Both the position numbers and the translations under genes were made by a program. Below the pieces are notes generated by a model. It did not search any database and had not been told where the DNA came from. It saw only the letters and a list, made by a program, of their open reading frames with translations. From Minisyncoccia bacterium (GTDB lineage: Bacteria > Patescibacteriota > Minisyncoccia > Phycocordibacterales > PALSA-1337), in NCBI GenBank assembly GCA_049997795.1, contig JBEKVT010000002.1, positions 65,664-129,663 on the forward strand: a stretch of DNA of 64,000 nt. Reading direction: 5' to 3'. Positions 3,430 to 64,000 of this stretch are shown one piece after another. Each line of letters begins with the position of its first letter. Within the stretch, counting starts at the first letter, position 1.

Positions 3430-3534
3430 GTCAAGCTCCGGACAGTCGGAGCTTTTTTGTCGAAGCCGTCGTCTTCGTCGACATCATCTAGGCCTTCTTC
3501 GTCTTCGCCGCTTTCGCCATGCTATAATTTCCAC

Positions 3535-6500
3535 ATGGGAATCTTTAACCGCTTCTCTTTTCGTGGCTCCCAAAAAAATCTCATTCTGGCCGGCGCAGTC
3601 ATGGCGCTCGTGATCGCCGTATTTTTTGTTTTTCGCCCACAGCTTGGTGAGGCGAGTGTTGCGACTTCTTCTCAAGCCACGAATGGACAAGGCGCGACGG
3701 TGTCCGGAACCGTGGCTGGAGAAGGCGGCACGTCGCTCCGGATGCGATACAAAAACGCGTGGATCACTGAGCAGGCGACCAACACGCGCAGGGGAAGGCT
3801 GGTCACGATATCGGCCCAGAATGAGGACCGGGATCATCCTCTCGTCGATGTGATCGCTTCCACCACGATCCCGAAGATATTCAAAGTGGGGGACGAGAGC
3901 AAGATACGGGTCAGATGGAGGGATAACGGCGATCAGGATGTCTCTTTCCGCGCCTACGACACGGACCACGACGGCTACATCGACCGCCTAGAGTGGACGG
4001 TCCCTCATTTGTCGGACGAGACGTACGAGATCATATTCATCTCCAAGGCGTTTCAGCTCGACTCTAACCAGAATGTCATAGCCGACATATATCCCCAGGT
4101 CGAGGCCAAAGACGGCAACTGGGCGACGATCAATGACGGCCAATACGTGAGAGCCACCTTCAACCAGGTGCTGGACGATTCGAAGGATATCACCGTCTAC
4201 GCCAGACCGACGGATCAGAGCCAACCGGCAGGGATACAGGTCTATCCCGTGTACACTGACCAGAATGGCAACCAGACCGAAGGATCGCAGATCGCCGCCT
4301 TCCCGGCGATAGACCATGAGGGTACTTACAGGATCCTGCTCACCGGACTTCCGACGCCGACCGGCGTCTTCGACCTGAAGATCGCCGGCAGCGTCGCCAT
4401 CGATTGGATCGTCGACCCTCCGGGCTGGCTCTCCGGCTGGTCATACAGGAAGAAGGTAACGATATCGAACACCAATGTGGGCTCCTCTGATCTTCCGTAT
4501 TTCCCTCTGCTCGTGAATATAGCCGAGACCGGAGGCGGTTCGACCAACATCGGATATAACCTGAGCGACAAGACCAATGGCTACGACATCAGGTTCACGG
4601 ATTCGAGCGGAACGAGCCTGCTCCCATACGAAAGGGAAGCCTTGAGCGTCGCTTCGAATAACCTCACGGCCAAACTTTGGGTCCAAGTCCCGACCGTGAA
4701 CCACCTGACCACCACGGATATCTATATCTATTACGGCAATTCCGGCCAGTCAGGGAGCGACTGGACGGCCACGACTGGCTCCGGCAACTGCAGCACCATG
4801 ACAGAAGCCAAATGCACGTGGAAAGAAGGCTCTTCGCAGAACTACGACGCCGTCTGGCATTTCAAGGAAACGGGGACTAACCCGACGATCCACGACTCGA
4901 CCGCTAAAGCAAACGACAGCACGGTCCAGACATGGACGCCTACGAGTGGGCCGGTCGACGGAGCGGGAGGCGATGACGGCAGCAAATGGGTCGAATTCAA
5001 TGGGAGCACCGTATTTCTGACCGCCACAAACGCTCATACATCCTCCTTTTGGGTCAATGTCACGAGCTATGATACCGGAGGCCATACTTACCCGACCATA
5101 TTGAACCTCAAGACGGATATCGACTATTACGCGGTCTATCTGAGCGACGTATCCGGATACGAGGGTATCAGCGCGAGCACGGTCGGGATAAATGGGTGGA
5201 GAGCTTCGGGAACGAGCGCAGCCTTAATCGGCTCCTGGAATTATATAACCGTGGTCTTCGACGGGGTGGACAGGACTAATGTGAATTCCTGGAAGATCTA
5301 TGTTAACGGCGTCTCCAAATCGCTGACGACGGCGGGAGGATGGAACACTATATCGGACAACATAATCTACACCGACGACAAATCCACCGCGGACACGCTT
5401 TATGGCACCATCGACGAATTGCGAGTCGCGTCTATCGCTCGCTCTGTCGGCTGGATAAATTTCGAATATTGCAACATGATGTCGACCGCGAGCGGGACTT
5501 GCAGCGGGACGAACGAGCTCACCTTCGGCAGCCAAGACACGGGCGGCACGGACAGATACTGGATCGGCGGTACCGGCAACTGGTCGGATACCAGCCATTG
5601 GGCGAACGCGTCCGGCGGGGGAGGGGGATACAGCGTTCCAGACTCGACCACCAACGTGCACTTCGATTCCGCTTCCGGAGGAGGAACCGCGACTGTGGAT
5701 GTCGCGGCTTCCGCGGCGAATTTCACGATGGATACCGGGAACACGACCAACGTCACCCTAGGGAATACCTTGACCGCCTCGGGCAATTTTACGATAACGG
5801 CCGGCACCTTCGATGTCTCCTCCGGAAATTATGCCCTGAGCGTCGCAGGTAATTGGTCCAATGCCGGGACTTTCACGGCAAGATCAGGCACAACGACTTT
5901 TAGCGGCGCCGCTGCCGAGACGCTCGCCGGCTCGATGGTGGGTGGGAACGCGTTTAACAACATCGCTTTTAGCGGGGCCGGCACTAAATCCTTTTCGAAC
6001 AACGCCTCGACGACCAATGTGACCATCCAGGCCGGTTCGGGAGCGGTGACGGCTCCGTCCGGGCTCTGGTCCGTATCCGGCTACTGGAACAACGGCGCCA
6101 CCTTCTCGCAGACCGCCGGAACGGTCGATTTCAACTCATCGGGACCGCAATCGATCTCTGGCTCTAATACCTGGTTCGGCCTGTCGGTCTCCGGCACGAC
6201 CGCCCGCACTGTATCGTTCCAGAGCGGGGCCATCCAGACAATATCCGGGAACGGCTCACTGACGTTCATGGGAGCACCGAGCCAGACGCTCTTGCTCTCG
6301 CCGATCACTCCAGGGAGCGCCTGGAAATTGGCCGTGTCGACAACCAACGTGACCCAATCGGTCACTTACACCTCGCCGTCATACTCGGACGCGTCGGGCT
6401 CGTCGAACTACAACCAGACGGTGTACGCGACTGGCGCTGGAGACAGCGACGGCGGCAACAACACGAACTGGTCATTCGGCGTATATTCGGTCACGATAAC

Positions 6501-6873
6501 GAGCAGCGGGGTCATCTCGTACGGCTATGTGACCTTGAGCACCTCATCGACGACCCTGGGCAGCGCCTACACCCAGGTCGCGAAGAATGACGGTGCCGTG
6601 AACGAAAGATTGAACGTCAAATCGAGCGACGCCACCGGCGGAACAGGATGGACGCTCGCTTCAATCATAGGGACGAACCAGTACACCCACGAATTTTCCA
6701 CGACTACGGGATCGACCTGGACGCTCCTGCCGGACAGCTCGACCTATGTCACCGCCGACCCGGCCGTCGCGCCGAGCGGGACGACGAATTTCGATTTCCG
6801 GGTGACAGTGCCCAGCACGTCGGATTACCAGCAAAAATCCATCACTATCACCATCCAAGCGGCTGCGCCATGA
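3535..6873 (+). CDS. Giant cell-surface protein (about 1112 aa). It has an N-terminal signal anchor, a DUF2341-like region, a concanavalin/LamG-like region, a Gly/Thr/Ser/Asn-rich repetitive beta-rich region and a C-terminal WxL-type cell-wall-binding domain (CscC-like).
   Basis: The start ATG at 3535 lies 6 nt after TGCTATAAT (3520-3528), so the mRNA is leaderless; the ORF track extends it upstream to 3457. Motifs: DWIVDPPGWLSGWSYRKKVTI...PYFPLL (DUF2341-like). The C-terminus carries VKSSDATGGTGWTLAS...GSTWTLLPD...ITITIQAAAP (two W-T-L motifs). Confidence 0.7.
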   Translation: MGIFNRFSFRGSQKNLILAGAVMALVIAVFFVFRPQLGEASVATSSQATNGQGATVSGTVAGEGGTSLRMRYKNAWITEQATNTRRGRLVTISAQNEDRDHPLVDVIASTTIPKIFKVGDESKIRVRWRDNGDQDVSFRAYDTDHDGYIDRLEWTVPHLSDETYEIIFISKAFQLDSNQNVIADIYPQVEAKDGNWATINDGQYVRATFNQVLDDSKDITVYARPTDQSQPAGIQVYPVYTDQNGNQTEGSQIAAFPAIDHEGTYRILLTGLPTPTGVFDLKIAGSVAIDWIVDPPGWLSGWSYRKKVTISNTNVGSSDLPYFPLLVNIAETGGGSTNIGYNLSDKTNGYDIRFTDSSGTSLLPYEREALSVASNNLTAKLWVQVPTVNHLTTTDIYIYYGNSGQSGSDWTATTGSGNCSTMTEAKCTWKEGSSQNYDAVWHFKETGTNPTIHDSTAKANDSTVQTWTPTSGPVDGAGGDDGSKWVEFNGSTVFLTATNAHTSSFWVNVTSYDTGGHTYPTILNLKTDIDYYAVYLSDVSGYEGISASTVGINGWRASGTSAALIGSWNYITVVFDGVDRTNVNSWKIYVNGVSKSLTTAGGWNTISDNIIYTDDKSTADTLYGTIDELRVASIARSVGWINFEYCNMMSTASGTCSGTNELTFGSQDTGGTDRYWIGGTGNWSDTSHWANASGGGGGYSVPDSTTNVHFDSASGGGTATVDVAASAANFTMDTGNTTNVTLGNTLTASGNFTITAGTFDVSSGNYALSVAGNWSNAGTFTARSGTTTFSGAAAETLAGSMVGGNAFNNIAFSGAGTKSFSNNASTTNVTIQAGSGAVTAPSGLWSVSGYWNNGATFSQTAGTVDFNSSGPQSISGSNTWFGLSVSGTTARTVSFQSGAIQTISGNGSLTFMGAPSQTLLLSPITPGSAWKLAVSTTNVTQSVTYTSPSYSDASGSSNYNQTVYATGAGDSDGGNNTNWSFGVYSVTITSSGVISYGYVTLSTSSTTLGSAYTQVAKNDGAVNERLNVKSSDATGGTGWTLASIIGTNQYTHEFSTTTGSTWTLLPDSSTYVTADPAVAPSGTTNFDFRVTVPSTSDYQQKSITITIQAAAP

Positions 6874-6994
6874 TCGTCATGAGAACAGGTATGTGGATAT
6901 CTTCTCGTTATCATATGATCCCCGGATAAGCTATACTGTATGCGCGTTACAGGGATACTATATTTATTCGATCGATTAATACAAAACATAATAT

Positions 6995-7534
6995 ATGAAA
7001 CAGGATTCTCTTTTGTCTCATAAGACGTCCCAGTCTTGGCATTATGCCCTGGCGTCCCTCGTGGCCCTGGCTCTTCTCTCATGGAATATCGCCATGGCTG
7101 GTAGCACGGCCACCGTCGCGGCGACGGTCACCGCGCAGCTCTTAAACATCTCCGTCGCGCCCGGGACCATCGCTTATGGCTCGGTTCCGCTGAATACGGC
7201 TACCACCACGGTGAACCACGGCTATCAGCAGACAGTGACAAACAGCGGTTCGACTATCCAGCTCAACGTGAAGTCGAGCGACGCGACCAATGGAACGTCG
7301 TGGACGCTTGCTTCTTCCCCGGGATCCGACACATACGAGCATCAGGTCTCCACGACGACAGGATCGACCTATATGATAATGCCGAACAGCTCGACCTATA
7401 TCACCGCCTCATCGACCATGACGACCGGCGTGACCAATACGCAGAAGCTGGACTTCCAGCTGACTACGCCGACCGCCTCGACGGATTTCCTCCAAAAGTC
7501 GATCACTATCACGGTCCAAGCGGCCGCTATCTAG
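6995..7534 (+). CDS. Small secreted WxL-domain protein (CscB-like), paralogous to the C-terminal domain of the upstream giant protein
   Basis: Signal peptide WHYALASLVALALLSWNIAMA. Residues LNVKSSDATNGTSWTLASSPG...FLQKSITITVQAAAI align nearly position-for-position with the last ~110 aa of the 3535-6873 protein. Confidence 0.65.
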   Translation: MKQDSLLSHKTSQSWHYALASLVALALLSWNIAMAGSTATVAATVTAQLLNISVAPGTIAYGSVPLNTATTTVNHGYQQTVTNSGSTIQLNVKSSDATNGTSWTLASSPGSDTYEHQVSTTTGSTYMIMPNSSTYITASSTMTTGVTNTQKLDFQLTTPTASTDFLQKSITITVQAAAI

Positions 7535-7600
7535 GACATTCGTTTGGAGAATATCGCATGCTCCATATCGCGGCTGTCCGTATCGTAATGCCATAAAAAA

Positions 7601-8221
7601 ATGAAACCATCCAAGCGCGTCGCAATATTCTCTTTTGTTCTGTCGGCATTCCTCCTGCTCAGTGCTTTCTTGACAGCTTCCTATGCGGAGGCGAGGATCG
7701 GCGTGGGCATGGGCTCGAGCGAGATACGCATAACTGACTCGGTGAAACCCGGCGGCATATACAAGCTCCCGACCCTGCGCATCTTCAATACGGGCGACGA
7801 GACGACTACCTACGGCATGGACGTCAGCTATCACGAGGATTACAAACAGATCCGGCCGGCGCCGGGATGGTTCACTTTCAGTCCCACCACCTTCACTCTC
7901 GATGCCGGGAAAAGCCAGGACGTCTCGATCACCATGGTCGTTCCCGTCAAGGCGGTACCGGGCGATTATTTCGCTTTCCTCGAGGGCGGTCCGGTCTCGA
8001 GCAACAAGCCCGGCACCACCGTCGGCGTGGCCGTCGCGGCAAAATTGTTCTTCACCGTGGCGCCCGCGAACATCTTCCAGGCAGCCTTATATAGGATATC
8101 TTCGTTCTTCTCGGCATACTCGCCGTGGACATGGATAGTCTTGGGCCTCGTCCTGTGCGCCGTCGTCGTGTATCTATTCAGGAGATTCTTCTCGCTAAGC
8201 TTTGCCGTGCGGAAGAGATAG
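7601..8221 (+). CDS. CscA-like surface protein: signal peptide, beta-sandwich ectodomain, C-terminal TM anchor and a basic tail (DUF916/DUF3324-type architecture)
   Basis: N-terminal signal MKPSKRVAIFSFVLSAFLLLSAFLTASYA. Ectodomain motif FSPTTFTLDAGKSQDVSITMVVP...PGDYFAFLEG. C-terminal TM WIVLGLVLCAVVVYLF followed by RRFFSLSFAVRKR. Confidence 0.45.
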   Translation: MKPSKRVAIFSFVLSAFLLLSAFLTASYAEARIGVGMGSSEIRITDSVKPGGIYKLPTLRIFNTGDETTTYGMDVSYHEDYKQIRPAPGWFTFSPTTFTLDAGKSQDVSITMVVPVKAVPGDYFAFLEGGPVSSNKPGTTVGVAVAAKLFFTVAPANIFQAALYRISSFFSAYSPWTWIVLGLVLCAVVVYLFRRFFSLSFAVRKR

Positions 8222-8227
8222 AAAAAA

Positions 8228-9208
8228 GTGGCCAACAAGAACCTGCGCATCGCGCTAGTCTCTGCCTTAACGGTCAGTGCCGTACTTTTCGCGGGGAAGG
8301 CCCTTGCGGTCGACATCACTGCCACAGTAAGTCTGGGCGTTTTCGTCCCAGGCCAACCATCCAATCTGGCGGCGACCATCGGAGACAAGAGCGTCGAGCT
8401 GTCGTGGTCGCCGCCGTCGAACGGCGGATCGGCCATAACCGATTATATAGTCGAATACAGGCTCTCGTTGGGCGGCAGCTGGTCTTCGTTCGATGTCGGT
8501 TCCGGCGGTGATACGTCGGCGACCTTGACCGGCTTGTCCAACGATAATTCATACGACTTTCGCGTCTCCGCCGTAAACGCCATAGGCCAGGGTCCGCCAT
8601 CGCCTGTAGTGAGCGCCACGCCCGGACCGCCCGCTCAGGTCATCGTCCAGAGCTTCCTCGATCTCTATGTGCCGAGCATAGGGACGAATGTGCGCATAAC
8701 TAACGAAGGGCTGACAGCTTATGAATACAACTATACTTGGTGCGTGACCGACTCAGACACGAACCTGTGCGGCGGAGGCGACGATGTCTTCGACTCTACG
8801 GCCGCCAAATGGATCGATCCAGGACAGAACTACGATACGACGTTGAATTCCACCGTACCGTCTCCGGGGAACTATTGGTTCCATGTCGCCGTGCAGTACG
8901 GCTCTGACTCCTCGCAAGCAAGCCAGTCTTTTACAGCTGTTACGGAAACCACGCCTCCGCCGCCACCGCCACCACCGGGTGGTGGAGGGGGCGGCGGAAG
9001 TGGAGGAGCTCCGGCTTGCGTCGGCGCAGATTTCAACCATGACGGCAGGGTGGATTCGGTGGATTTCTCGATAATGCTCGCCTACTGGGGAACTTCCGGA
9101 CCGATCAATAATCCTTGCGTGGACATAAACGGCGACAAAAAGATCGATTCCGTGGACTTCTCGATCCTGCTCTACCAATGGGGCAGGAGCCCTATCCCTT
9201 TTAAATAG
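8228..9208 (+). CDS. Secreted protein with a fibronectin type III domain, a Pro/Gly linker and a C-terminal dockerin-like double calcium-binding repeat
   Basis: GTG start with a signal peptide. FN3 signature SVELSWSPPSNGGSAITDYIVEYR...YDFRVSAVNAIG. Linker PPPPPPPPGGGGGGGSGG. Dockerin repeats DFNHDGRVDSVDFSIMLAYWG and DINGDKKIDSVDFSILLYQWG. Confidence 0.6.
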   Translation: MANKNLRIALVSALTVSAVLFAGKALAVDITATVSLGVFVPGQPSNLAATIGDKSVELSWSPPSNGGSAITDYIVEYRLSLGGSWSSFDVGSGGDTSATLTGLSNDNSYDFRVSAVNAIGQGPPSPVVSATPGPPAQVIVQSFLDLYVPSIGTNVRITNEGLTAYEYNYTWCVTDSDTNLCGGGDDVFDSTAAKWIDPGQNYDTTLNSTVPSPGNYWFHVAVQYGSDSSQASQSFTAVTETTPPPPPPPPGGGGGGGSGGAPACVGADFNHDGRVDSVDFSIMLAYWGTSGPINNPCVDINGDKKIDSVDFSILLYQWGRSPIPFK

Positions 9209-9214
9209 AACGCC

Positions 9215-10099
9215 ATGCGCAGGATATCTTTATCGGATCTGATATTCGGGATAGCGATCGGATCTTTGGCGCTCTTGCCGCGCGGCGTATCTGCTGCAGA
9301 GTTGAGCTTCAAACTGATCTCTGATGATGCCGCCGGCAACGGAGCGGCCGTCGTCGAGGCCCGTATCGACTCACAAGAGAAGGACATAAACGCGATCGAC
9401 GGCATAATCAGCCTCGTGGGCACGGGAAAGACGGATATATCGTCGGTCGGGATAGAGACCGGAGGGTCGGTATTGACGTTCTGGCCGGTCCCGCCGCAGT
9501 ATTCTCCGACCGAAAAAGTCATCCGCTTCACCGGGGGAGTGCCGAACGGCTTCGATCGCGAGGGACCTCTCTTCCGCATGCATATCTTCACGTCCTCGCC
9601 TGGCGACGTGACCATCTCGTGGATCGGCGGCTCCGCCTATCTTAATGACGGCAAGGGCACTAGAGAGGGCATATACGCCAAATCCATCGTTGTGTCACTC
9701 GCCCCGCAAAACCAGAGCACATCTAACGGGTATTCTTACGACAAGACGCCGCCGAATTTCGATTCTGTCCTCGTCGGACGAGATCCGAACACGTACGGCG
9801 GAAGATATTTCGTGAGCTTCCACGCGATCGACGACATCTCCGGCGTAGCCCGATACGAAGTCAGGGAAGGACAGGCCGTGACGAGCGTCGCGAACGGAGT
9901 CTATGTGTTCAAAGACCAGACCATGGCGACGCCGGTCTTCATCACGGCGTATGATCAGGCGGGGAACAGCAAGACGGTGACCGTCGGATCGCCATCCAAC
10001 CGGCCGAAAGACATCATGATTACGGCATTATTCGCGGTCATCCTAATCATCCTTTTCGCCGTATTCAGATACGGACATAAAAGAGCCGCCAAGAGATAG
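9215..10099 (+). CDS. Membrane-anchored surface protein with an N-terminal cohesin-like beta-sandwich module (a putative anchoring scaffoldin)
   Basis: Signal peptide, then AVVEARIDSQEKDINAIDGIISLVGTGKTDISSVGIETGGSVLTFW...GPLFRMHIFTSSPGDVTISWIGGSAYLND, which resembles the cohesin fold pattern. C-terminal TM IMITALFAVILIILFAVF plus a basic tail. Confidence 0.4.
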   Translation: MRRISLSDLIFGIAIGSLALLPRGVSAAELSFKLISDDAAGNGAAVVEARIDSQEKDINAIDGIISLVGTGKTDISSVGIETGGSVLTFWPVPPQYSPTEKVIRFTGGVPNGFDREGPLFRMHIFTSSPGDVTISWIGGSAYLNDGKGTREGIYAKSIVVSLAPQNQSTSNGYSYDKTPPNFDSVLVGRDPNTYGGRYFVSFHAIDDISGVARYEVREGQAVTSVANGVYVFKDQTMATPVFITAYDQAGNSKTVTVGSPSNRPKDIMITALFAVILIILFAVFRYGHKRAAKR

Positions 10100-10182
10100 G
10101 ATAGCGGAGCTTTCGGTGGCGTCGTGATCGTAAACGATCACGACATCCTACCGAAATATAGTCACTTCGTTCCTTATTTCGG

Positions 10183-10253
10183 TGGACCTAGGGGGAGTCG
10201 AACCCCCGCCTCGGCAATGCGAATGCCGCGTAATACCACTTTACTATAGGCCC
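10183..10253 (-). tRNA. tRNA-Ala (anticodon CGC)
   Basis: The reverse complement GGGCCTATAGTAAAGTGGTATTACGCGGCATTCGCATTGCCGAGGCGGGGGTTCGACTCCCCCTAGGTCCA has a G3:U70 pair, anticodon loop TTCGCAT and T-loop TTCGACT. Confidence 0.75.
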
Positions 10254-10371
10254 CAGCGAGGTGCGAAATGAATATACCATGTCCATTCCGTCCGAGCGAC
10301 AGGCCTATATGAGCTAAGCGATCATAGGCCCGGCCGCCGCCTGCGGGTGCTTCTTGGCGGCTCTTTCAATG

Positions 10372-10442
10372 TCGGGGCGCCGAGAATCGAACTCGGACCT
10401 CACGCACCCGAAGCGTGTATACTACCACTATACTACGCCCCG
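10372..10442 (-). tRNA. tRNA-Pro (anticodon CGG)
   Basis: The reverse complement CGGGGCGTAGTATAGTGGTAGTATACACGCTTCGGGTGCGTGAGGTCCGAGTTCGATTCTCGGCGCCCCGA has C1:G72 (a Pro hallmark), anticodon loop TTCGGGT with G37, and T-loop TTCGATT. Confidence 0.75.
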
Positions 10443-10444
10443 TG

Positions 10445-10517
10445 TGGACCATACCGGACTCGAACCGGTCACCTCACCCATGCCATGGGTGCGCTCTACC
10501 AGATGAGCTAATGGCCC
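10445..10517 (-). tRNA. tRNA-Ala (anticodon GGC)
   Basis: The reverse complement GGGCCATTAGCTCATCTGGTAGAGCGCACCCATGGCATGGGTGAGGTGACCGGTTCGAGTCCGGTATGGTCCA has G3:U70 and anticodon loop ATGGCAT. Confidence 0.8.
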
Positions 10518-10608
10518 GTCATTCTGGCGCCTCCACTCTATCATAATTTGATGATTTTTCAAGAATGCCGTAAGCTTGGGGACGTGCCGACCGATCGGCT
10601 CGCGATTC

Positions 10609-10682
10609 CGGGCTGTAGTATAGTGGTAGTATACATCCATGGGGTGGATGCGGTCCGGGTTCGATTCCCGGCAGCCCGACCA
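10609..10682 (+). tRNA. tRNA-Pro (anticodon GGG), 3' CCA encoded
   Basis: CGGGCTGTAGTATAGTGGTAGTATACATCCATGGGGTGGATGCGGTCCGGGTTCGATTCCCGGCAGCCCGACCA has C1:G72 and anticodon loop ATGGGGT with G37. Confidence 0.8.
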
Positions 10683-10708
10683 GTGCGATTCGTTGGCGTG
10701 AATTATCA

Positions 10709-10782
10709 GCACCCTTAGCTCAGTCGGCTAGAGCGCGCCCTTCACACGGGCGAGGTCGCAGGTTCGAGCCCTGCAGGGTGCA
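10709..10782 (+). tRNA. tRNA-Val (anticodon CAC)
   Basis: GCACCCTTAGCTCAGTCGGCTAGAGCGCGCCCTTCACACGGGCGAGGTCGCAGGTTCGAGCCCTGCAGGGTGCA has anticodon loop TTCACAC. Confidence 0.85.
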
Positions 10783-10805
10783 CAACAAAAATAGGGGGAA
10801 ATAAA

Positions 10806-11551: not shown

Positions 11552-12970
11552 ATGAGCCAGACCCAAGGGAAAGCCGCCGCTTCGGCCGCTCTCCATCCGA
11601 CCATCTTCGTCATCTTCGGCGTGACGGGCGACCTTGCCGGCCGCAAGCTCATCCCGGCTCTCCTAGGCCTTTTCTCCAAAAGGATGCTGCCTCAGCGCTT
11701 CGCCGTCATCGGCTTCTCCCGCCGGCCGTTCTCGAGAGAGGAGTTCCGCGAACTCATCCGGGAGAAGATGGGCGTCAAGCCGGGCGAATTCAGGGAAGAG
11801 GACGTGAAGCATTTCCTGGATCACATGTCGTACGAGCAGGGCTTGTTCGACGAGCCGGCAGCTTATGAACGGCTGTCGGCCCACGTCAAGGCGATCGACG
11901 ACCGCTGGGGCCAATGCTCGAACAAGCTGTTCCATCTGGCCGTGCCGCCGAGCCTCTACGAAGGCATCCTGAGGCGCCTGTCAGAATCGGGCCTGACCGA
12001 GACGTGCGCCGACGAGACCGGCTGGACCAGGATACTCATCGAGAAGCCTTTCGGCCGCGACCTGCCGACGGCCCAGGCCCTGGACAAGCTCCTGGGCAAG
12101 CTCTTCGAAGAGGAGCAGATCTTCCGCATCGACCATTACCTCGCCAAGGAATCATTGCAGAACATCCTGGCCTTCCGCTTCAACAACTCGCTGTTCGAGC
12201 CTATCTGGCGCCGAGATTTCATCGACAAGATCCACATCAAGCTCTTCGACGGAAGCGGCGTGGAAGAGCGGGGCGACACCTACGACGCCATGGGCGCTCT
12301 TAAGGATGTCGGCCAGAACCACATGCTGATGATGCTCTCGGCCATGACCATGGACAAGCCGAAGTCGTTCTCCGGCGCCGACATCCGGGCCGAGCGCGCC
12401 CGCGTCCTAAGTAAGCTCAGGGTCGCCACAGACCGGTCGGCGAAAAAGTGTTCGGTGAGAGGGCAATATTCCGGCTACCAGGCCGAGCCGGGTGTCTCGA
12501 AGCAATCGGAGACGGAGACTTATTTCCGCGTCAAGTCTTACATCAGCTCCTTCCGCTGGAAAAAAGTGCCGCTCTATCTCGAGTCCGGCAAGGGCCTCTC
12601 GGAGACCAAGACCGAGATCGACGTCTATTTCAAGGGCGGCAAGAACGAGAACGAGCAGAACATCCTGACTTTCCGCATCCAGCCGGACGAGGGCATCAAG
12701 ATCAAGTTCTTCGTCAAGACGCCGGGCCATGAATTCAGGGTCGAGCCGAAGACCTTGAAGTTCAAGTACGCCGACGTGCCAGCCGCCAACTGGCAGTCCA
12801 TGCCCAACGACTATGAGCGCCTGATCCACGATGCTTTCATCGGCGACCAAACCTTGTTCGCCTCGACCGAAGAGATCCTGGCCTCATGGAAATTCATCGA
12901 AGCCGTCCTCACGAGCTGGGAGGGCCTGCCGCTAATCAAATACGGAAGGGGAGCGAGGGAAGTGGGGTAA
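11552..12970 (+). CDS. zwf: Glucose-6-phosphate 1-dehydrogenase
   Basis: IFGVTGDLAGRKLIPAL NADP-binding motif and the RIDHYLAKE active-site signature. TACAAT lies 6 nt upstream of the ATG (leaderless). Confidence 0.9.
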   Translation: MSQTQGKAAASAALHPTIFVIFGVTGDLAGRKLIPALLGLFSKRMLPQRFAVIGFSRRPFSREEFRELIREKMGVKPGEFREEDVKHFLDHMSYEQGLFDEPAAYERLSAHVKAIDDRWGQCSNKLFHLAVPPSLYEGILRRLSESGLTETCADETGWTRILIEKPFGRDLPTAQALDKLLGKLFEEEQIFRIDHYLAKESLQNILAFRFNNSLFEPIWRRDFIDKIHIKLFDGSGVEERGDTYDAMGALKDVGQNHMLMMLSAMTMDKPKSFSGADIRAERARVLSKLRVATDRSAKKCSVRGQYSGYQAEPGVSKQSETETYFRVKSYISSFRWKKVPLYLESGKGLSETKTEIDVYFKGGKNENEQNILTFRIQPDEGIKIKFFVKTPGHEFRVEPKTLKFKYADVPAANWQSMPNDYERLIHDAFIGDQTLFASTEEILASWKFIEAVLTSWEGLPLIKYGRGAREVG

Positions 12971-59018: not shown

Positions 59019-60623
59019 CTATACCTTCCCGAACGGTTCGATCTCGACGATGAAGGTGGCGCCCTTCCCTTCCCCGGCCGACTCGGCGCGGATCGTGCCG
59101 TGGTGGGCCTCCACCAGCTGTTTGGCCACGAAAAGGCCGAGGCCGGTGCCTTTGATGTTGACCTTCGAGGCGTTCTCGGCCCGGGAGAATTTCTGGAAGA
59201 GGTGCGGCAGGACTTTCGGGTCGATGCCGACGCCGGTGTCCTTGACGGCGAAGACGAAGAGGTGCCGCGGCCGGTCGAAGGCGAGAGTCACGGCGACCGA
59301 GCCGGACGGCGTGTATTTCATGGAATTGTCGATCAGGTTGGCGATGACCTGTTTGAATTTATCGCGGTCGGCGGTGATGCGGTAATCGATGTTGCTGTCC
59401 TCGGCGGTGAAGGAGAACTTGAGGCCGGCCTTCTCGATGTTCGGCTGGAGCTCGGCGATGACGTCTTCGATCAAGGTCTTCAGGTCAATGGTCTCGAAGT
59501 TGTACTTCATGGTGCCGAGTTCGATCCTGGAGACGTTCAGATAGTCATCGACGATGCTGACCAGGGTGTTGGTCGAATCGAAGATGTGCCGGATGCCGTC
59601 AAGGGCTTGCCGGCCGAGCTCCCCCATGTCGCCCTCAAGAAGGAGCGAGGCGTAGCCTTTCATGGCCGAGAGAGGGGCCCGCAGCTGATGCGTGGCGAAG
59701 GATATGAACTCCGACTTCTGCCGGTCCAGCTCCGTCAGCCGCTCGTTCGCCTTCTCCAGGTCATCCGCCAGCTTTTGGATGCGCTCGCGTTGAAGAACTT
59801 CTTTAATAACACTTCGAATTAAGAAAACACCCGTAATTATGACTAAAACAAAAAGAATCCCGTTTATAATAATATCTTCGAATGAAATCGAAAGCAGTGT
59901 CCTGACAAAGATAAAAATGGAAAGTGCAAAGACCAACAATTCGGTTGCGATAACCTTTATGTTCAAAAAGTGTAGTTTCAATATTGCATAAGCCGTGAAG
60001 CCGACAAATAAAATCAAGCTTGGCGCATCAAGGAGGGTAAAGTCAAAAACATTAAAATATACAGGCAATATAACGCTGAATGATAGAGCTGCAAGGCTAT
60101 AAGATGAAACCCCAAGAAGGATGAACCTTAATTGTAATTTTGATATTCCTGTAGCCTTCTTTTGGGCTTGATATATAAGATAAATAAACGAACAGATGTA
60201 AAGCAGAAAATACAGCGCGTATATTGTGAAGAATGGCCCTAAATGACCTTGATAACCTAGCACGGTCAGACGATCAATTCCACTGACAACATATCCGTCT
60301 AAATAACAAATAGCGAAGAGGAAAATGCTGGGTATAAAAATGCCTATTTTTTGCCACAGTGGAATTCTTTTTAAATCAATGTTACATATTTCAAGAATCC
60401 AGATTAGGCCGGTTAGTGGTACAAGTGTCGTAAACGCATAACTGCTTCGTAGAATAATCAGGGTTGGGTAGAATCTGAACAAATAATCAAATATGATGGA
60501 AATGACTGTGCTAAGACTAAATACAGCAAAACCATAATTTAATCTTTCATTCGGTTTTCGTAACCAGACTATCAACCCAAGAAAAAGGTTGAGTATCCCG
60601 GATAATAAGATAATGACAGACAT
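59019..60623 (-). CDS. Sensor histidine kinase with an N-terminal polytopic (7TM-receptor-type, HisKA_7TM-like) sensor domain. The sensor part is AT-rich and the kinase core GC-rich.
   Basis: About 8 TM helices over the first ~270 aa, then a coiled-coil linker (QRERIQKLADDLEKANERL), an H-box FATHQLRAPLSAMKGY, an N-box LIDNSMKYT, G1 VKDTGVGID and G2 GTGLGLFVAKQLV. The nucleotide composition switches near 59800. Confidence 0.85.
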   Translation of the reverse strand: MSVIILLSGILNLFLGLIVWLRKPNERLNYGFAVFSLSTVISIIFDYLFRFYPTLIILRSSYAFTTLVPLTGLIWILEICNIDLKRIPLWQKIGIFIPSIFLFAICYLDGYVVSGIDRLTVLGYQGHLGPFFTIYALYFLLYICSFIYLIYQAQKKATGISKLQLRFILLGVSSYSLAALSFSVILPVYFNVFDFTLLDAPSLILFVGFTAYAILKLHFLNIKVIATELLVFALSIFIFVRTLLSISFEDIIINGILFVLVIITGVFLIRSVIKEVLQRERIQKLADDLEKANERLTELDRQKSEFISFATHQLRAPLSAMKGYASLLLEGDMGELGRQALDGIRHIFDSTNTLVSIVDDYLNVSRIELGTMKYNFETIDLKTLIEDVIAELQPNIEKAGLKFSFTAEDSNIDYRITADRDKFKQVIANLIDNSMKYTPSGSVAVTLAFDRPRHLFVFAVKDTGVGIDPKVLPHLFQKFSRAENASKVNIKGTGLGLFVAKQLVEAHHGTIRAESAGEGKGATFIVEIEPFGKV

Positions 60624-60626
60624 GAT

Positions 60627-61697
60627 TTATACAGATATAAATTTATTAACAAAATTCCTTCCTAGTATATTCCCCATAATATCCCCAGACGTCTCTCCGT
60701 TATTGCATTTCTTCGCGGCCAGATATACACATCCTATGTTGTAAGCAATTCTATTGTACAGGGCATCCGATCCAAAGATAAGTTTTGAGCTTGGTATTAT
60801 ATTAAGAGTTCTTGAAATGACTGACGTGGACACGCCTGAGGTATCGAAAAACAGATTGCTGTATTTATCACTCAGTTTCTTTATCAAACGATAATCAATG
60901 TTAACCATACCGTAATGACCTATGTGGGCAATAATGACCTTTATGTCATAAGCGCTCAGAAGTTCACTGGCTCCATCTTTATCACAGAAATTTTCTAGTA
61001 AACCATTTGTCCTACTTCGTTCGATATAACCGTATTTCCTGTTTATCTTAAGGGTATAATTTGAAATGCCGCCGTGGAACAAAACATAAAGTTTGTATTT
61101 GGCGGCAGTCTCGTATATCTTGCGGAGTTTTTTTGCAATCTCATCGCCGTTTTTATATGGTTCTGGTTTGAAATTCTGAAGATTGGGGTGAAATTTAAGT
61201 CCAACAATATGGTAATTATCTACATACGACTTTATGGTGGATTCGATTTCTGAAAGATTGATGTTGTGGATGTCGACGGAACCAAGAAGCATAAATCTAG
61301 TATCCTGAGAATATTTTTTACCGACGTTTTCTGTCGGCGCCCATGGGTCGAGAGACAAAAGAATGCTTTTATCGGCTAGTGATGCTTCCATTTCTTCAAG
61401 GATTCGATCAGCATTAGTTTTTTTGTAAGTATGCTCAATCATAGAGAACACACTCCTAGGAAAAAGTTTAAAGTACAATCGTGATCCTATCTTTTCAAGT
61501 TTACTGTAATTAAATTTTTCTAAAATTCCTGGGCTCAAATAATCTTCGTGGCAGCATTCATCGACAATTTCTTCATAATGGACAACGCCCATAACGTCAA
61601 TCGGGTGAATGTGAGTGTCAATGATCCGAAAACTTAAATCATTTTTTAGTTTTCGTACATCTTTTAGGACCTCTATAATTTGTCTTTTGTACATCAA
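60627..61697 (-). CDS. Metal-dependent amidohydrolase-2-family (TIM-barrel) hydrolase
   Basis: IIDTHIHP (HxH metal ligands), FHGG, AHIGH and FGSDA. It lies 3 nt from the sensor-kinase gene and overlaps the upstream gene by 4 nt. Confidence 0.65.
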   Translation of the reverse strand: MMYKRQIIEVLKDVRKLKNDLSFRIIDTHIHPIDVMGVVHYEEIVDECCHEDYLSPGILEKFNYSKLEKIGSRLYFKLFPRSVFSMIEHTYKKTNADRILEEMEASLADKSILLSLDPWAPTENVGKKYSQDTRFMLLGSVDIHNINLSEIESTIKSYVDNYHIVGLKFHPNLQNFKPEPYKNGDEIAKKLRKIYETAAKYKLYVLFHGGISNYTLKINRKYGYIERSRTNGLLENFCDKDGASELLSAYDIKVIIAHIGHYGMVNIDYRLIKKLSDKYSNLFFDTSGVSTSVISRTLNIIPSSKLIFGSDALYNRIAYNIGCVYLAAKKCNNGETSGDIMGNILGRNFVNKFISV

Positions 61698-62908
61698 AAT
61701 CCTATTTCGCTTTTAATTTCTTTTAGATTTTCAATCAGGACGTTAATCTGTTCCTTTGTGTGTGCGGTTGACACGGTCGTGCGCAGGCGAGCCTTGCCTT
61801 TCGGTACGGCCGGCCAACGAGCTGCAGGAATGAAGATGCCGCGCTCCAGGAGCTTGACGCTGGCATCCATAGCCTTTTTCTCATTTCCTATAAAAATGGG
61901 TATTATCTGCGTTCTAGAATTGAGGAAATTGATTCCGATATTCGCTAATTGGTCTTTCATATATAGCGCATTGGCAAGTACTTTCTCTCTCCTCCAGGTC
62001 TCCTCGGTTGCGATCTCGATCGACTTAATCAGACCACAGACCACCGGGGGCGCGATCGGCGCCGTGAAGATGAATGAGTCAGAAGTTATTTTGAGATAAT
62101 CGACCAAATCTTTTGAACCAACCACGAAACCACCGACCCCGCCAAAACATTTGGTGAATGTCCCCATAATCACATCGACTTGCCCTTCAACGTTGTAGTA
62201 GTCTTCGACTCCTCGGCCGTGCGGGCCAAGGATGCCAGTGCCGTGAGCATCATCGAGATAAACGATCGCTTTGTATTGTCTCGCTTGTTCAAGTATCTGG
62301 GGTAGCGGAGCGATGTCGCCATCCATACTAAAAACTCCGTCCGTCACAATCATCTTTCTTTGGGATACGGGATAATTCTTCAGTTTTTCCAGTAAGTCAT
62401 TAATGTCCAAATGCTTGTAGATCTCTTTCTTCGCACCGCTCAATCGTATACCGGCGATGGCACTCGCGTGATTGTACTCATCGCTGAAGATAATTGTGTC
62501 TTTATCTTTCGCGATTTTTTCGCTGAAGAGCGACGCCAGAGAAAATTTCGGGACATTGACTAATGCCGGGATGGTGCCGGAGTTTGCCATGTATCCAGAG
62601 ACGAACGACACTGCCGCTTCCCTGTGTTTGAACGCAGCGATTTTTTCTTCCAACTGATTATGAATCTCAAGATTGCCGGTCAGGAGACGGGCGCTGCCAT
62701 TACCGATACCCCATTTCCTTGCTCCTTGAACAGCCGCCTCGATAACACGTGGATCTGTCATCAAATCCAAATAATTATTAGTCGCGAACATTAAGACCTT
62801 TTTTCCGTTGACTACAACTTCTGGAGCATGCGGCGAAGATACTACGGGCGGGTACGGGTAAAAACCATGTTTCTTAATGAAATTTACCGCTTGAGAAAGA
62901 CTTTTCAT
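61694..62908 (-). CDS. PLP-dependent alpha-oxoamine synthase family enzyme (BioF / Kbl / serine palmitoyltransferase / CqsA-type)
   Basis: Fold-type I PLP enzyme. DDAHGTGILGPHGRG and GTFTKCFGGVGGFVVG (PLP lysine in TFTK). The length of about 404 aa is typical for this family. Confidence 0.8.
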   Translation of the reverse strand: MKSLSQAVNFIKKHGFYPYPPVVSSPHAPEVVVNGKKVLMFATNNYLDLMTDPRVIEAAVQGARKWGIGNGSARLLTGNLEIHNQLEEKIAAFKHREAAVSFVSGYMANSGTIPALVNVPKFSLASLFSEKIAKDKDTIIFSDEYNHASAIAGIRLSGAKKEIYKHLDINDLLEKLKNYPVSQRKMIVTDGVFSMDGDIAPLPQILEQARQYKAIVYLDDAHGTGILGPHGRGVEDYYNVEGQVDVIMGTFTKCFGGVGGFVVGSKDLVDYLKITSDSFIFTAPIAPPVVCGLIKSIEIATEETWRREKVLANALYMKDQLANIGINFLNSRTQIIPIFIGNEKKAMDASVKLLERGIFIPAARWPAVPKGKARLRTTVSTAHTKEQINVLIENLKEIKSEIGF

Positions 62909-63022
62909 GACTTCATTTTAACATTATCTGGTAATTTTTGCGTGTTGGATATGTGGGTAGAAATCTTATAGATGACGCGCGTAACAGATTTCTGAATTAC
63001 CTTGGTACCTTATCTTGATATA

Positions 63023-64000
63023 ATGAACGGCGTGGTTATATCAGCATATGTTGTAATCATCTGGACTGCTGCTGTACTTATTGGCAGTCTAGCTCTAGTT
63101 ATATTTCTAGGTAACAACAAACCTTCTTCGAGGGCTTTCGCCTTTACTATATCCATAGTCACCTTGTGGACAATGAGTGTTGGGCTTTTTACAGCTTCAA
63201 GGGATCCGAATCTTGCTGAATTTTGTATAAAGATGAATTTTTTCCTTGGGAGCGCTATAGCCTCATCATTTTTATATTTTTTCTTCACATTTCCTTACGA
63301 CAAAAGGCCTAACCATAAACTTGCCTTGTCTCTTGTAATGCTCCAACTTATTTTCTTATATTTATATTTTTTTACGAATATCATTGTATATGGACCAGTC
63401 CCATTAACAAATCCTTCTTCTGCTATTTGGTGGGGATGGGGATTGGGTCCAGGATATTTTGTATATAACCTATTCTTTTTCGGTTTTTTCTTGACCGGAA
63501 TCGTACTCTTATATCATAGATACCGTTTAACCAAAGATTATTCTCAAAAGAATAATCTAAAATACATGTTGTCAACAGTGATTATAGGCCTAATCCCGCC
63601 AACGCTTTTTAATCTAATTTTACCTCCATTAGGATATTTTGGTCTTAATTGGGTTGGACCAGCCAGTGGTATGTTCTGGGTACCGATTATGGCCTATTCC
63701 ATCATCCGTTATCATCAAATGAATGTACGGGTGGTGGTTACAGAGGTGCTGGCCATCGGTATGGCGTTCATTTTCTTCATGGACATCTTTATCACGATGT
63801 CGTTCGGTATTTGGGGGCGTATCGGTACCTTCGGGGCTTTCCTTGTTTTGAGCGCATATTTGATTCGCGGTGTTCTCCGGGAAGCTAAGCAGAGAGAACA
63901 GCTCGACGATCTAAACCGAAATCTCGAGCAGAAAGTCGCCGATCAGACGGTGGAGATCAGGAAGTCGTACGAAGCAGAGAAACATGCCCGCGCGGAATTG
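63023..64000 (+). CDS. Second sensor histidine kinase-like protein, 5' part only (runs off the window). It has a polytopic 7TM-type sensor domain paralogous to that of 59019-60623.
   Basis: An open frame from ATG 63023 with no stop before the window end. The start codon is uncertain because the -10-like TATAAT (63019-63024) overlaps this ATG. LVIFLGNNKPSSRAFAFTISIV resembles LIVWLRKPNERLNYGFAVFSLS of the first kinase. After the last TM helix the sequence becomes GC-rich and enters a coiled-coil linker (REAKQREQLDDLNRNLEQKVADQ). Confidence 0.6.
   Translation, partial: MNGVVISAYVVIIWTAAVLIGSLALVIFLGNNKPSSRAFAFTISIVTLWTMSVGLFTASRDPNLAEFCIKMNFFLGSAIASSFLYFFFTFPYDKRPNHKLALSLVMLQLIFLYLYFFTNIIVYGPVPLTNPSSAIWWGWGLGPGYFVYNLFFFGFFLTGIVLLYHRYRLTKDYSQKNNLKYMLSTVIIGLIPPTLFNLILPPLGYFGLNWVGPASGMFWVPIMAYSIIRYHQMNVRVVVTEVLAIGMAFIFFMDIFITMSFGIWGRIGTFGAFLVLSAYLIRGVLREAKQREQLDDLNRNLEQKVADQTVEIRKSYEAEKHARAEL

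Follow-up and report, generated by a model that had tools for sequence, protein, structure and literature searches.

Two adjacent genes for exported proteins lie on the forward strand of the window, the whole stretch of 64,000 nucleotides that was analysed, and all features described below are on the same strand. The first gene (8228..9208; GTG start, TAG stop) encodes a secreted protein of 326 aa with Pfam fn3 and Dockerin_1 domains (protein 1). The second (9215..10099) encodes a cohesin-like type I membrane protein of 294 aa (protein 2), as judged from the ORF list, the gene call, its homologues and an AlphaFold2 (AF2) model. Both ORFs are identical to the JGI gene calls on the source contig (326 and 294 aa), and the protein P0077 is an exact match to protein 1. 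A previous sequence-only reading had placed the second gene 7 nt downstream of the first. It is indeed the next gene, but the gap between the TAG stop (9206-9208) and the start of protein 2 at 9215 is 6 nt, the value of 7 being obtained when counting from the last base of the stop codon. When the 64 kb were read in all six frames, no ORF other than protein 1 carried two dockerin-type repeat motifs.

Upstream of the pair are three co-directional genes (3457..8221) which, according to ORFs, Pfam and locus comparison, accompany it in a subset of relatives; the same upstream gene order was found in loci L008, L010, L011, L012 and L046. They encode a DUF2341 protein of 1138 aa, a secreted protein of 179 aa and a 206-aa protein with a signal peptide, beta structure and a transmembrane (TM) segment. 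The 179-aa protein shares its C-terminal domain with the 1138-aa protein, the two copies (6508-6867 and 7163-7531) being 53% identical. The two small proteins matched no Pfam family above the gathering cut-off and, in PDB sequence searches, no entry (6995-7534 and 7601-8221). In the five-gene operon as a whole, no protein showed a CAZyme domain by Pfam. Just past the stop codon of protein 2 lies a stem-loop (10111..10156). The folded stretch 10095-10175 reaches -35.7 kcal/mol (z -5.7), and none of 200 shuffled sequences folded as well. The stem-loop is missing from the terminator scan because it lacks a T-tract, and it possibly marks the end of the operon. Scans for sigma-70 promoters and intrinsic terminators gave counts not above those in shuffled sequence.

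The dockerin-bearing protein

Protein 1 starts with a signal peptide, recognized by reading the sequence (aa 1-27, MANKNLRIALVSALTVSAVLFAGKALA/VD; 8228..8308), which is followed by an FN3 domain (aa 43-130; 8354..8617; PF00041, E 1e-16, 61.3 bits), an Ig-like beta sandwich of seven strands with a conserved YxYxWC...CGGGDD motif (aa 135-240; 8630..8947) and a flexible linker (aa 241-263; 8948..9016). The linker consists of a Pro8 run (aa 243-250) and a Gly-rich run (aa 251-260) and comprises the lowest-scoring blocks of the model (block mean pLDDT 61-74, three residues <50). Modelled as a two-domain fragment, the Ig-like domain and the dockerin reached a pTM of only 0.59. The architecture proposed earlier, a dockerin after an FN3 domain and a Pro8-Gly linker, thus holds for the FN3 domain and the linker but lacked the Ig-like sandwich between them. 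No X module is packed on the dockerin as in the X-dockerin dyads of types II and III; instead, the 23-residue Pro8/Gly linker intervenes.

The C-terminal dockerin is type-I-like (aa 264-319; 9017..9184) and matches Pfam PF00404 (Dockerin_1) over aa 268-314 with an E-value of 1.6e-9 and 38.3 bits (gathering score 22.9). The duplication described in the sequence-only reading was confirmed, with the repeats DFNHDGRVDSVDFSIMLAYWG (aa 268-288; 9029-9091) and DINGDKKIDSVDFSILLYQWG (aa 299-319; 9122-9184) each forming a calcium loop and a helix. Loss of the calcium-binding D/N pattern upon closer alignment had been named as a possible objection. The pattern D1/N3/D5/(N,D)9/D12 is however kept, both loops are canonical, and in either repeat 49-53 of the 53 orthologues retain each of the calcium positions 1, 3, 5, 9 and 12. 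In the same orthologues, residues F13, S14 and I15 of the two repeats show no or almost no variation, whereas position 10 separates an S-type class of dockerins (Ser) from an L-type class (Leu or Ile). The model shows a loop-helix-loop-helix arrangement with helices at aa 277-285 and 308-316 (block mean pLDDT 84-95). The closest PDB sequences are the type I dockerins 2vn5_B (E 2.6e-4) and 1daq, and the alignment with 2vn5_B spans both repeats without gaps. By its Pfam score, calcium pattern and model, the C-terminus of protein 1 is a dockerin, for which calcium-dependent folding is predicted. One cysteine precedes each repeat (C264 and C297), and the two covary, with both present in 24 of the 53 orthologues, both absent in 25 and only the first present in four. 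A C264-C297 disulfide possibly staples the dockerin.

The membrane protein with a cohesin fold

Protein 2 carries a signal peptide, identified by inspection (aa 1-27, MRR...LLPRGVSA/AE; 9215..9295; model helix aa 6-19), and ends in a hydrophobic TM helix (aa 263-288 by hydropathy scan; model helix aa 263-293) with the basic cytoplasmic tail KRAAKR (10001..10096), in agreement with the signal peptide and C-terminal TM anchor reported earlier. The AF2 model (pLDDT 92, pTM 0.77) shows nine beta strands within aa 28-162, which form a cohesin-fold domain (aa 28-165; 9296..9709). A cohesin-like beta sandwich had been predicted for the first ~140 mature residues, and the model bears out this prediction including the nine-stranded fold. 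Between this domain and the TM helix lies a second, Ig-like domain of seven modelled strands (aa 176-257; 9740..9985), which was absent from the earlier description. This spacer resembles DUF7743 (PF24893) with 24.4 bits, below the cut-off of 27, and the same Pfam model matches 58 of 67 family members.

The HMMER check with the Pfam cohesin model PF00963 (threshold 24.1 bits) gave a divided answer: protein 2 itself showed no match at E<=1, whereas relatives of the same family do match. Pfam and NCBIfam scans of protein 2 returned no cohesin, only sub-threshold DUF7743 and a weak OmpL47. Among family members, 10 of 56 match Pfam Cohesin, five of them above the gathering score, including L053 (33.1 bits), L050 (32.7), P0071 (28.0) and L044 (25.3). 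Since hhalign ties the subfamily of the window to this Pfam-positive subfamily (100%, E 1.5e-45), homology of protein 2 to cohesins is supported, albeit indirectly. Searches of PDB sequences with protein 2 (phmmer) and with the family profile (hmmsearch) returned no cohesins. The family profile matched the Ig domain of chitinase 6bt9 (E 0.0057), and the cohesin matches of the subfamily profile were sub-significant (E 0.12-0.6). Matches of protein 2 or the family profile to Fab and shark V-NAR entries were rejected as chance matches.

The conserved residues of the cohesin domain are N59, E62 and G63; W90 and P94; F105, G107 and G108; and Y142, D145 and G146, located in predicted strands 3, 5, 6 and 8. 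In known cohesins, the sheet of strands 8-3-6-5 is the dockerin-binding face. On the model, the conserved residues of protein 2 would thus map to this face.

Conservation of the gene pair in Patescibacteria

In the Patescibacteria loci analysed, the double dockerin motif occurs in 56 ORFs and is confined to their extreme C-terminus; in 55 cases the next gene downstream matches the family profile of protein 2 (signal peptide, cohesin-like domain, TM helix). The adjacency of dockerin and membrane cohesin genes is therefore conserved in Patescibacteria. At the C-terminus, each of the 53 non-redundant partners has a hydrophobic segment and, behind it, a basic tail; 51 exceed the threshold of the hydropathy scan. 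A hydrophobic N-terminal leader was scored in most of the 53, the remainder being leader-like by inspection. The pair was found in dozens of related genomes, and protein 2 has 76 full-length homologues. Its family forms at least 2,362 clusters when grouped at 50% identity (E<=1e-30), mostly of about 290-310 aa and aligned end to end, and is annotated almost entirely as "hypothetical" or DUF7743.

The dockerin carriers range from about 290 aa in the small type, to which the window protein with 326 aa belongs, up to 5,301 and 6,437 aa in two complete giant examples. The last 400 residues of these two giant homologues consist of FN3-like repeats, an Ig-like domain and the dockerin, and in most relatives the module of FN3, Ig-like domain, linker and dockerin ends a giant protein. 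The FN3 domain, previously regarded as the cargo, is present, but it is rather a conserved C-terminal module of a usually giant protein. Divergence of dockerins and cohesins is correlated (Mantel r 0.66, reached by 0 of 2000 permutations). As shared phylogeny is not removed in this test, we take the correlation only as consistent with co-divergence.

Most relatives encode a second membrane cohesin as a third gene (495-596 aa; cohesin, Ig, TM and a cytoplasmic helical tail of ~80 aa), which is absent from the window. Not every member of the phylum has this arrangement: SEML1_0315, a dockerin protein essential to the cultivated Saccharibacterium Southlakia, lacks a cohesin neighbour and is flanked by an alpha/beta hydrolase gene on the other strand and a tRNA gene.

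A candidate surface tether and its alternatives

We consider it likely that the two genes encode a cohesin-dockerin pair by which this Patescibacteria (CPR) bacterium anchors a surface protein non-covalently at the cytoplasmic membrane. This reading is built on what was observed of the domains, the signals of membrane topology, the fold of the cohesin domain, its homology to cohesins that Pfam recognizes and the adjacency of the genes, and each in silico refutation test that was run favoured it as the earlier interpretation of the locus. From these observations we infer that the two proteins bind each other, that binding depends on calcium, and what the displayed protein does for the cell. Both proteins would be exported through Sec. 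Protein 2 would be held in the cytoplasmic membrane by its TM helix, with the basic tail inside, and would present the distal N-terminal cohesin on the Ig-like stalk. Its ectodomain of about 235 residues may barely span the cell wall. Protein 1 would be freed from the membrane once its signal peptide is cleaved and is proposed to be recaptured because its C-terminal dockerin, on the flexible Pro/Gly tether, would bind the cohesin in a non-covalent, calcium-dependent manner. As the pair occurs in dozens of related genomes and the dockerin usually ends a giant surface protein, the tethering of surface proteins to the cell is probably its function in these bacteria. We posit that the pair is a lineage-wide tether for large surface proteins, presumably adhesins, of which the window would hold a "minimal" version with a 326-aa carrier.

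The most serious rival places both proteins in one surface structure but has the dockerin leave the neighbouring cohesin-like domain unoccupied. In that case the dockerin would be a calcium-stabilised terminal module or a binder of a glycan, a host-cell ligand or another protein, and the neighbour an independent membrane adhesin or stalk. Candidates for such another protein exist: three more co-directional surface-protein genes belong to the window-type operon (the products of 6995-8221 among them), and the second cohesin-bearing membrane protein is encoded downstream in most relatives, so that the dockerin's true partner could be this paralogue in other genomes. In the stretches examined of the window, L008, L011 and L012, however, the adjacent protein is the only cohesin-like gene, and the adjacency (55/56) persists with or without the third gene or the upstream genes. 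A Saccharibacteria dockerin protein has been interpreted as glycan-targeting (Wang et al., 2023), which would suit this rival, whereas the invariance of F13, S14 and I15 in the dockerin helix points to a protein as the conserved partner, and among the solved top matches dockerin binding is the only known role of the cohesin fold. On balance we regard a dockerin that ignores its neighbour as rather unlikely.

Protein 2 might also be an export or assembly factor, either a membrane chaperone or "usher" that grips the usually giant protein at its C-terminus while or after it passes through Sec, without anchoring it permanently, or a processing partner analogous to sortase and exosortase systems that recognise a C-terminal sorting domain. 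A C-terminal recognition domain with a one-to-one adjacent membrane protein is generally the genomic signature of sorting systems, and carriers of 5,301-6,437 aa might need help with secretion, but the small 326-aa carriers retain the same partner, the dockerin ends the protein and lacks a motif of the cleavage type, and in protein 2 only beta-sandwich domains and one TM helix were found, none of them catalytic or protease-like. These points make an export role improbable. Even less credit is due to a mere resemblance of fold, with protein 2 being a generic beta-sandwich adhesin domain like CLIPPER, MSCRAMM N2 or the alpha-2-macroglobulin receptor-binding domain in a coincidental neighbourhood; this explanation is already largely refuted.

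The proposed tethering pair differs in several respects from known systems. The single-cohesin anchoring scaffoldins OlpA, OlpC and SdbA of Clostridium thermocellum (PDB 3ul4, 4dh2, 2bm3) are attached to a wall polymer by SLH domains and carry cellulosomal enzymes or scaffoldins. Protein 2, whose sequence similarity to them is below Pfam detection, has a TM helix and basic tail in place of an SLH or sortase (LPXTG) wall anchor; Pfam found no SLH, and LPXTG only weakly (E 0.017-0.089) in one or two family members. Likewise, its proposed partner is no carbohydrate-active enzyme or enzyme-bearing scaffoldin but consists, apart from the dockerin, of FN3 and Ig-like domains only; the cargo in this Patescibacteria lineage would be non-enzymatic FN3/Ig-repeat proteins. 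ScaE of Ruminococcus flavefaciens (PDB 2zf9, type III) binds the XDoc of the adhesin-like CttA and of ScaB, but it is attached covalently by sortase and its dockerin sits behind a rigid X module rather than a disordered 23-residue Pro/Gly linker. The non-cellulosomal modules of Archaeoglobus fulgidus (2xdh), of the Clostridium perfringens GH84/GH33 toxin complexes (2w1n, 2vo8, 2ozn) and of ANME archaea reside on soluble enzymes or on proteins with both module types. To our knowledge, none of these is described as a dedicated TM-anchored receptor beside its single dockerin partner. In sortase/LPXTG and SLH anchoring of Gram-positive bacteria, a functional analogue, a C-terminal module likewise decides on the surface retention of a Sec-exported protein, but attachment there is covalent or to a wall polymer, whereas a non-covalent plug to a membrane protein is proposed here.

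Non-cellulosomal cohesin-dockerin pairs are already known from several lineages (Peer et al., 2009, as summarized in a citing paper). Our literature searches for cohesin or dockerin in Patescibacteria, CPR or Parcubacteria, and for DUF7743, yielded no description of this pair. Giant "dockerin-type" proteins of Omnitrophota, which are also very large surface proteins of ultra-small bacteria, contain dockerin-type calcium-binding repeats and are regarded as mediators of attachment (West-Roberts et al., 2023, bioRxiv 10.1101/2023.11.21.568195). In the parts of that preprint consulted, their dockerin/EF-hand repeats are numerous and internal, the proteins have their own C-terminal TM anchor and no separate cohesin receptor is mentioned, in contrast to the one terminal dockerin and the separate membrane cohesin described here.

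More tentatively, and with considerable doubt, the membrane cohesins of ~300 aa might be a general tether specific to Patescibacteria/CPR that replaces sortase or SLH anchoring and holds the largest surface proteins, presumably the adhesins by which these episymbionts contact their hosts. Through its ~80-aa cytoplasmic tail, the second paralogue could link attachment to an intracellular signal. The proposal would extend cohesin-dockerin biology to a TM-anchored, non-enzymatic setting, and the self-contained pair of a cohesin of about 140 aa and a dockerin of about 55 aa might be of use as an orthogonal tool for protein display.

A large part of bacterial diversity belongs to the CPR/Patescibacteria, whose cultivated members live attached to host cells. 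The proposed one-to-one module of a terminal dockerin and an adjacent membrane cohesin offers a concrete and easily testable tethering mechanism for these organisms and would give a function to thousands of related proteins now called "hypothetical". If true, a terminal dockerin encoded beside this gene would make the proteins of host attachment easy to recognise in genomes of uncultivated CPR.

The two genes and the dockerin

The genes of the dockerin-bearing protein (protein 1; 8228-9208, + strand) and of the membrane protein encoded directly downstream (protein 2; 9215-10099, + strand) were located where the sequence-only reading had placed them. Both open reading frames are identical to JGI gene calls of 326 and 294 aa, respectively (metagenome 3300038416, contig Ga0427927_000007, 657 kb). 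The protein 2 gene starts 6 nt past the TAG stop of the protein 1 gene. The genes at 7601, 8228 and 9215 are consecutive and share one reading frame with exactly 6 nt from stop to start between neighbours, which is consistent with tight translational coupling and a single operon.

All parts that had been claimed for protein 1, namely the FN3 domain, the Pro8/Gly-rich linker, the two repeats and the C-terminal dockerin, were recovered. A signal-peptide-like N-terminus is followed by FN3 (Pfam, aa 43-130, E 1e-16), a linker with a Pro8 run (aa 243-250) and a Gly-rich run (aa 251-260), and Dockerin_1 (PF00404, aa 268-314), which scored 38.3 bits against a curated threshold of 22.9 (E 1.6e-9). In the AlphaFold model of aa 135-326 (pLDDT 91), a sandwich of seven strands is connected by a linker of low confidence to the dockerin, where a short helix directly follows each of the two loops. 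As the linker between the preceding domain and the dockerin is disordered, an X-dockerin dyad was rejected for this protein.

The two repeats (aa 268-288 and 299-319, 21 residues each) both carry D1, N3, D5, D9 and D12, and calcium positions 1, 3, 5, 9 and 12 are each conserved in 49-53 of 53 non-redundant orthologues; the D/N pattern, on which some doubt had been raised, is therefore canonical. F13, S14 and I15 at each helix start are invariant or nearly so in the same orthologues. No other open reading frame in the six frames of the window contains a double dockerin loop according to a motif scan. In a PDB sequence search the closest solved structures were type I dockerins, namely Clostridium cellulolyticum Cel5A (2vn5_B, E 2.6e-4, both repeats aligned without gaps) and C. 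thermocellum CelS (1daq, 2mte). Sequence identity between the two repeats is 62%, and they have their helix residues in common, which would allow a dual binding mode as in type I dockerins. One cysteine precedes each calcium loop (C264, 9017-9019; C297, 9116-9118; + strand). Of the 53 orthologues, 24 have both, 25 have neither and 4 have the first alone, and this joint presence or absence suggests an optional disulfide staple.

A cohesin recognizable by structure

By sequence, protein 2 of the window is unrecognizable as a cohesin. The Pfam scan returned only DUF7743, below threshold and in the second domain, and no match to the Cohesin model (PF00963), NCBIfam yielded nothing useful, and PDB sequence searches gave chance matches only. 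In a structure model based on 67 homologues (pLDDT 92, pTM 0.77), a helix at the N-terminus precedes nine strands (between aa 28 and 162) and a second domain of seven strands (aa 181-257), and the C-terminus forms a long helix (aa 263-293). Searched with this model against the PDB, Foldseek returned cohesins almost exclusively, with the cohesin-FN3 didomain of C. perfringens GH84C as top match and a TM-score of 0.70 to the non-cellulosomal cohesin of Archaeoglobus fulgidus. The nine-stranded cohesin fold proposed for the N-terminal module is thus borne out by the model, and judged by predicted structure this domain is a cohesin.

Homology beyond mere fold likeness is supported by the wider partner family, in which 10 of 56 members match Pfam Cohesin. 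Five of them exceed the gathering score of 24.1 bits (loci L053, 33.1; L050, 32.7; L044, 25.3; protein P0071, 28.0; and a paralogue in locus L001, 25.7), and hhalign ties this Pfam-positive subfamily to that of the window with a probability of 100% (E 1.5e-45). The residues N59, E62, G63, W90, P94, F105, G107, G108, Y142, D145 and G146 are invariant in the cohesin domain across the family. They are located in predicted strands 3, 5, 6 and 8, which may correspond to the dockerin-binding sheet of solved complexes.

Distribution, carriers and genomic context

Close homologues of protein 2 number 76; they are about 290 aa long and without exception named 'hypothetical'. In a search of 1.84 billion cluster representatives, the number of clusters matched by the family profile fell from 9,248 (E<=1e-3) to 6,252 (E<=1e-10) and 2,362 (E<=1e-30) as the cut-off was tightened; the best matches were mostly 290-310 aa long and covered end to end. 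With each species represented by one genome, a scan found 60 related loci, nearly all from Patescibacteria MAGs (Falkowbacteria, Wolfebacteria, Kaiserbacteria, Moranbacteria, Kerfeldbacteria, Nomurabacteria, Gribaldobacteria, Magasanikbacteria, Paceibacterota and MAGs labelled Saccharibacteria). A double dockerin motif is present in 56 open reading frames of the fetched loci, in every case at a distance of 49-81 residues from the C-terminus, and 55 of these open reading frames lie directly upstream of a cohesin-like gene. The 53 non-redundant partners all fit the family profile, and each has a basic tail behind a hydrophobic C-terminal segment; a hydropathy scan scored this segment in 51 and, in most, also a hydrophobic leader at the N-terminus. 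Distances among the dockerins rise and fall with those among the cohesins (Mantel r 0.66, 0 of 2000 permutations), a correlation that includes the effect of shared ancestry.

The dockerin carriers occur in small and giant forms. Small carriers of about 325 aa, like protein 1, form >100 clusters at 90% identity and are annotated at best as 'fibronectin type III domain-containing protein'. Two giants have complete gene calls (6,437 aa in Falkowbacteria CP066698, and 5,301 aa), and several further carriers span the entire 10 kb flank examined. Since the last ~300 residues of the giants are collinear with and about 60% identical to the whole of protein 1, the latter is the conserved 'anchoring module' of their C-terminus, equipped with a signal peptide of its own. 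A gene fragment was rejected as an explanation for protein 1, given how widespread the small form is. The family profile also matches giant proteins (P0197, P0198, P0203 and P0244; 2,183-4,269 aa) through 18-31 tandem copies of the DUF7743-like Ig domain, which thus serves both as spacer in the anchor and as a repeated unit in large surface proteins.

Most relatives carry a third gene, which overlaps the end of the cohesin gene (L001:8842-10632; L003:8851-10338). Its product of 495-596 aa combines a signal peptide with a paralogous cohesin (the 25.7-bit match in L001) and Ig-like domains, together with a TM helix and ~70-80 aa of helical tail in the cytoplasm. Among the loci compared, the third gene is absent from the window, L008, L011 and L012. 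In the window its position is occupied by five tRNA genes on both strands (10181-10783; Ala-CGC, Pro-CGG, Ala-GGC, Pro-GGG, Val-CAC). Directly behind the stop codon of the cohesin gene lies a long, nearly perfect stem-loop (10111-10156; folded stretch 10095-10175, -35.7 kcal/mol, z -5.7) with no T-tract, which may act as a terminator or stabilise the RNA. The tRNA cluster and small open reading frames are followed by a glucose-6-phosphate dehydrogenase gene (11552-12970) and syntenic YchF, LeuRS and sigma-factor genes. The window and L003 have these last three in common, which places the 'giant' and 'split' forms at the same chromosomal position in related genomes.

Upstream, three co-directional genes (3457-8221) encode proteins of 1138 aa (DUF2341), 179 aa (secreted) and 206 aa (signal peptide, beta-sandwich, TM), and the trio precedes the pair in identical order in L008, L010, L011, L012 and L046. 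The two smaller proteins matched no Pfam family at the gathering cut-off and no PDB sequence. The C-terminal ~120 aa of the 1138-aa protein (6508-6867) are 53% identical to the 179-aa protein (7163-7531), and this common C-terminal domain contains a W-T-L motif. A large and a small protein with a common C-terminal domain next to a TM-anchored beta protein are reminiscent of the WxL/DUF916 'Csc' surface clusters of Firmicutes. The 1138-aa protein also contains an EF-hand-like calcium loop, DTDHDGYIDRLE (aa 163-180, 3943-3996), with weak Pfam EF-hand matches (E 2.4e-4 to 3e-3); it was rejected as a dockerin because it is a single, internal loop. At the far end of the window (60000-64000) GC drops from about 0.57 to 0.38-0.43. 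This stretch holds the end of a membrane histidine kinase gene (59019-60623), an amidohydrolase-like open reading frame judged by eye (60627-61697) and an AONS/serine-palmitoyltransferase-like aminotransferase (61694-62908), and may represent a horizontally acquired island.

Probable anchoring to the cytoplasmic membrane

The best-supported reading of the pair, which we consider probable, is cohesin-dockerin anchoring to the cytoplasmic membrane by a predicted non-covalent, calcium-dependent binding. Both proteins would be exported, the type-I TM anchor of protein 2 would hold the cohesin distally on an Ig-like stalk, and the dockerin of protein 1, on its flexible Pro/Gly tether, would plug into it. 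The sequence-only reading, which had proposed a surface display pair, is confirmed in its observation and supported in its interpretation as far as computation allows.

Such anchoring is not new in principle. In function it resembles anchoring scaffoldins with a single cohesin (OlpA, OlpC and SdbA of C. thermocellum; ScaE-CttA of Ruminococcus flavefaciens), and the pair is also similar to the cohesin-dockerin pairs that A. fulgidus, C. perfringens and ANME archaea have outside cellulosomes. It differs from known systems in its anchor (a TM helix instead of SLH or sortase), in its non-enzymatic and often giant FN3/Ig cargo, in its one-to-one gene arrangement, and in a sequence divergence by which most family members escape the Pfam cohesin model. 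The literature searched contained no description of this pair in CPR bacteria. An essential dockerin-domain protein has been reported in a Saccharibacterium (Wang et al., 2023), with no cohesin neighbour at its locus, and giant proteins of Omnitrophota have been described in which dockerin repeats are numerous and internal and which carry a TM anchor of their own (West-Roberts et al., 2023; bioRxiv 10.1101/2023.11.21.568195). The anchoring proposed here would assign a function to a protein family that is very large and unannotated. It also provides a model, open to direct testing, of how giant surface proteins may be retained by CPR bacteria.
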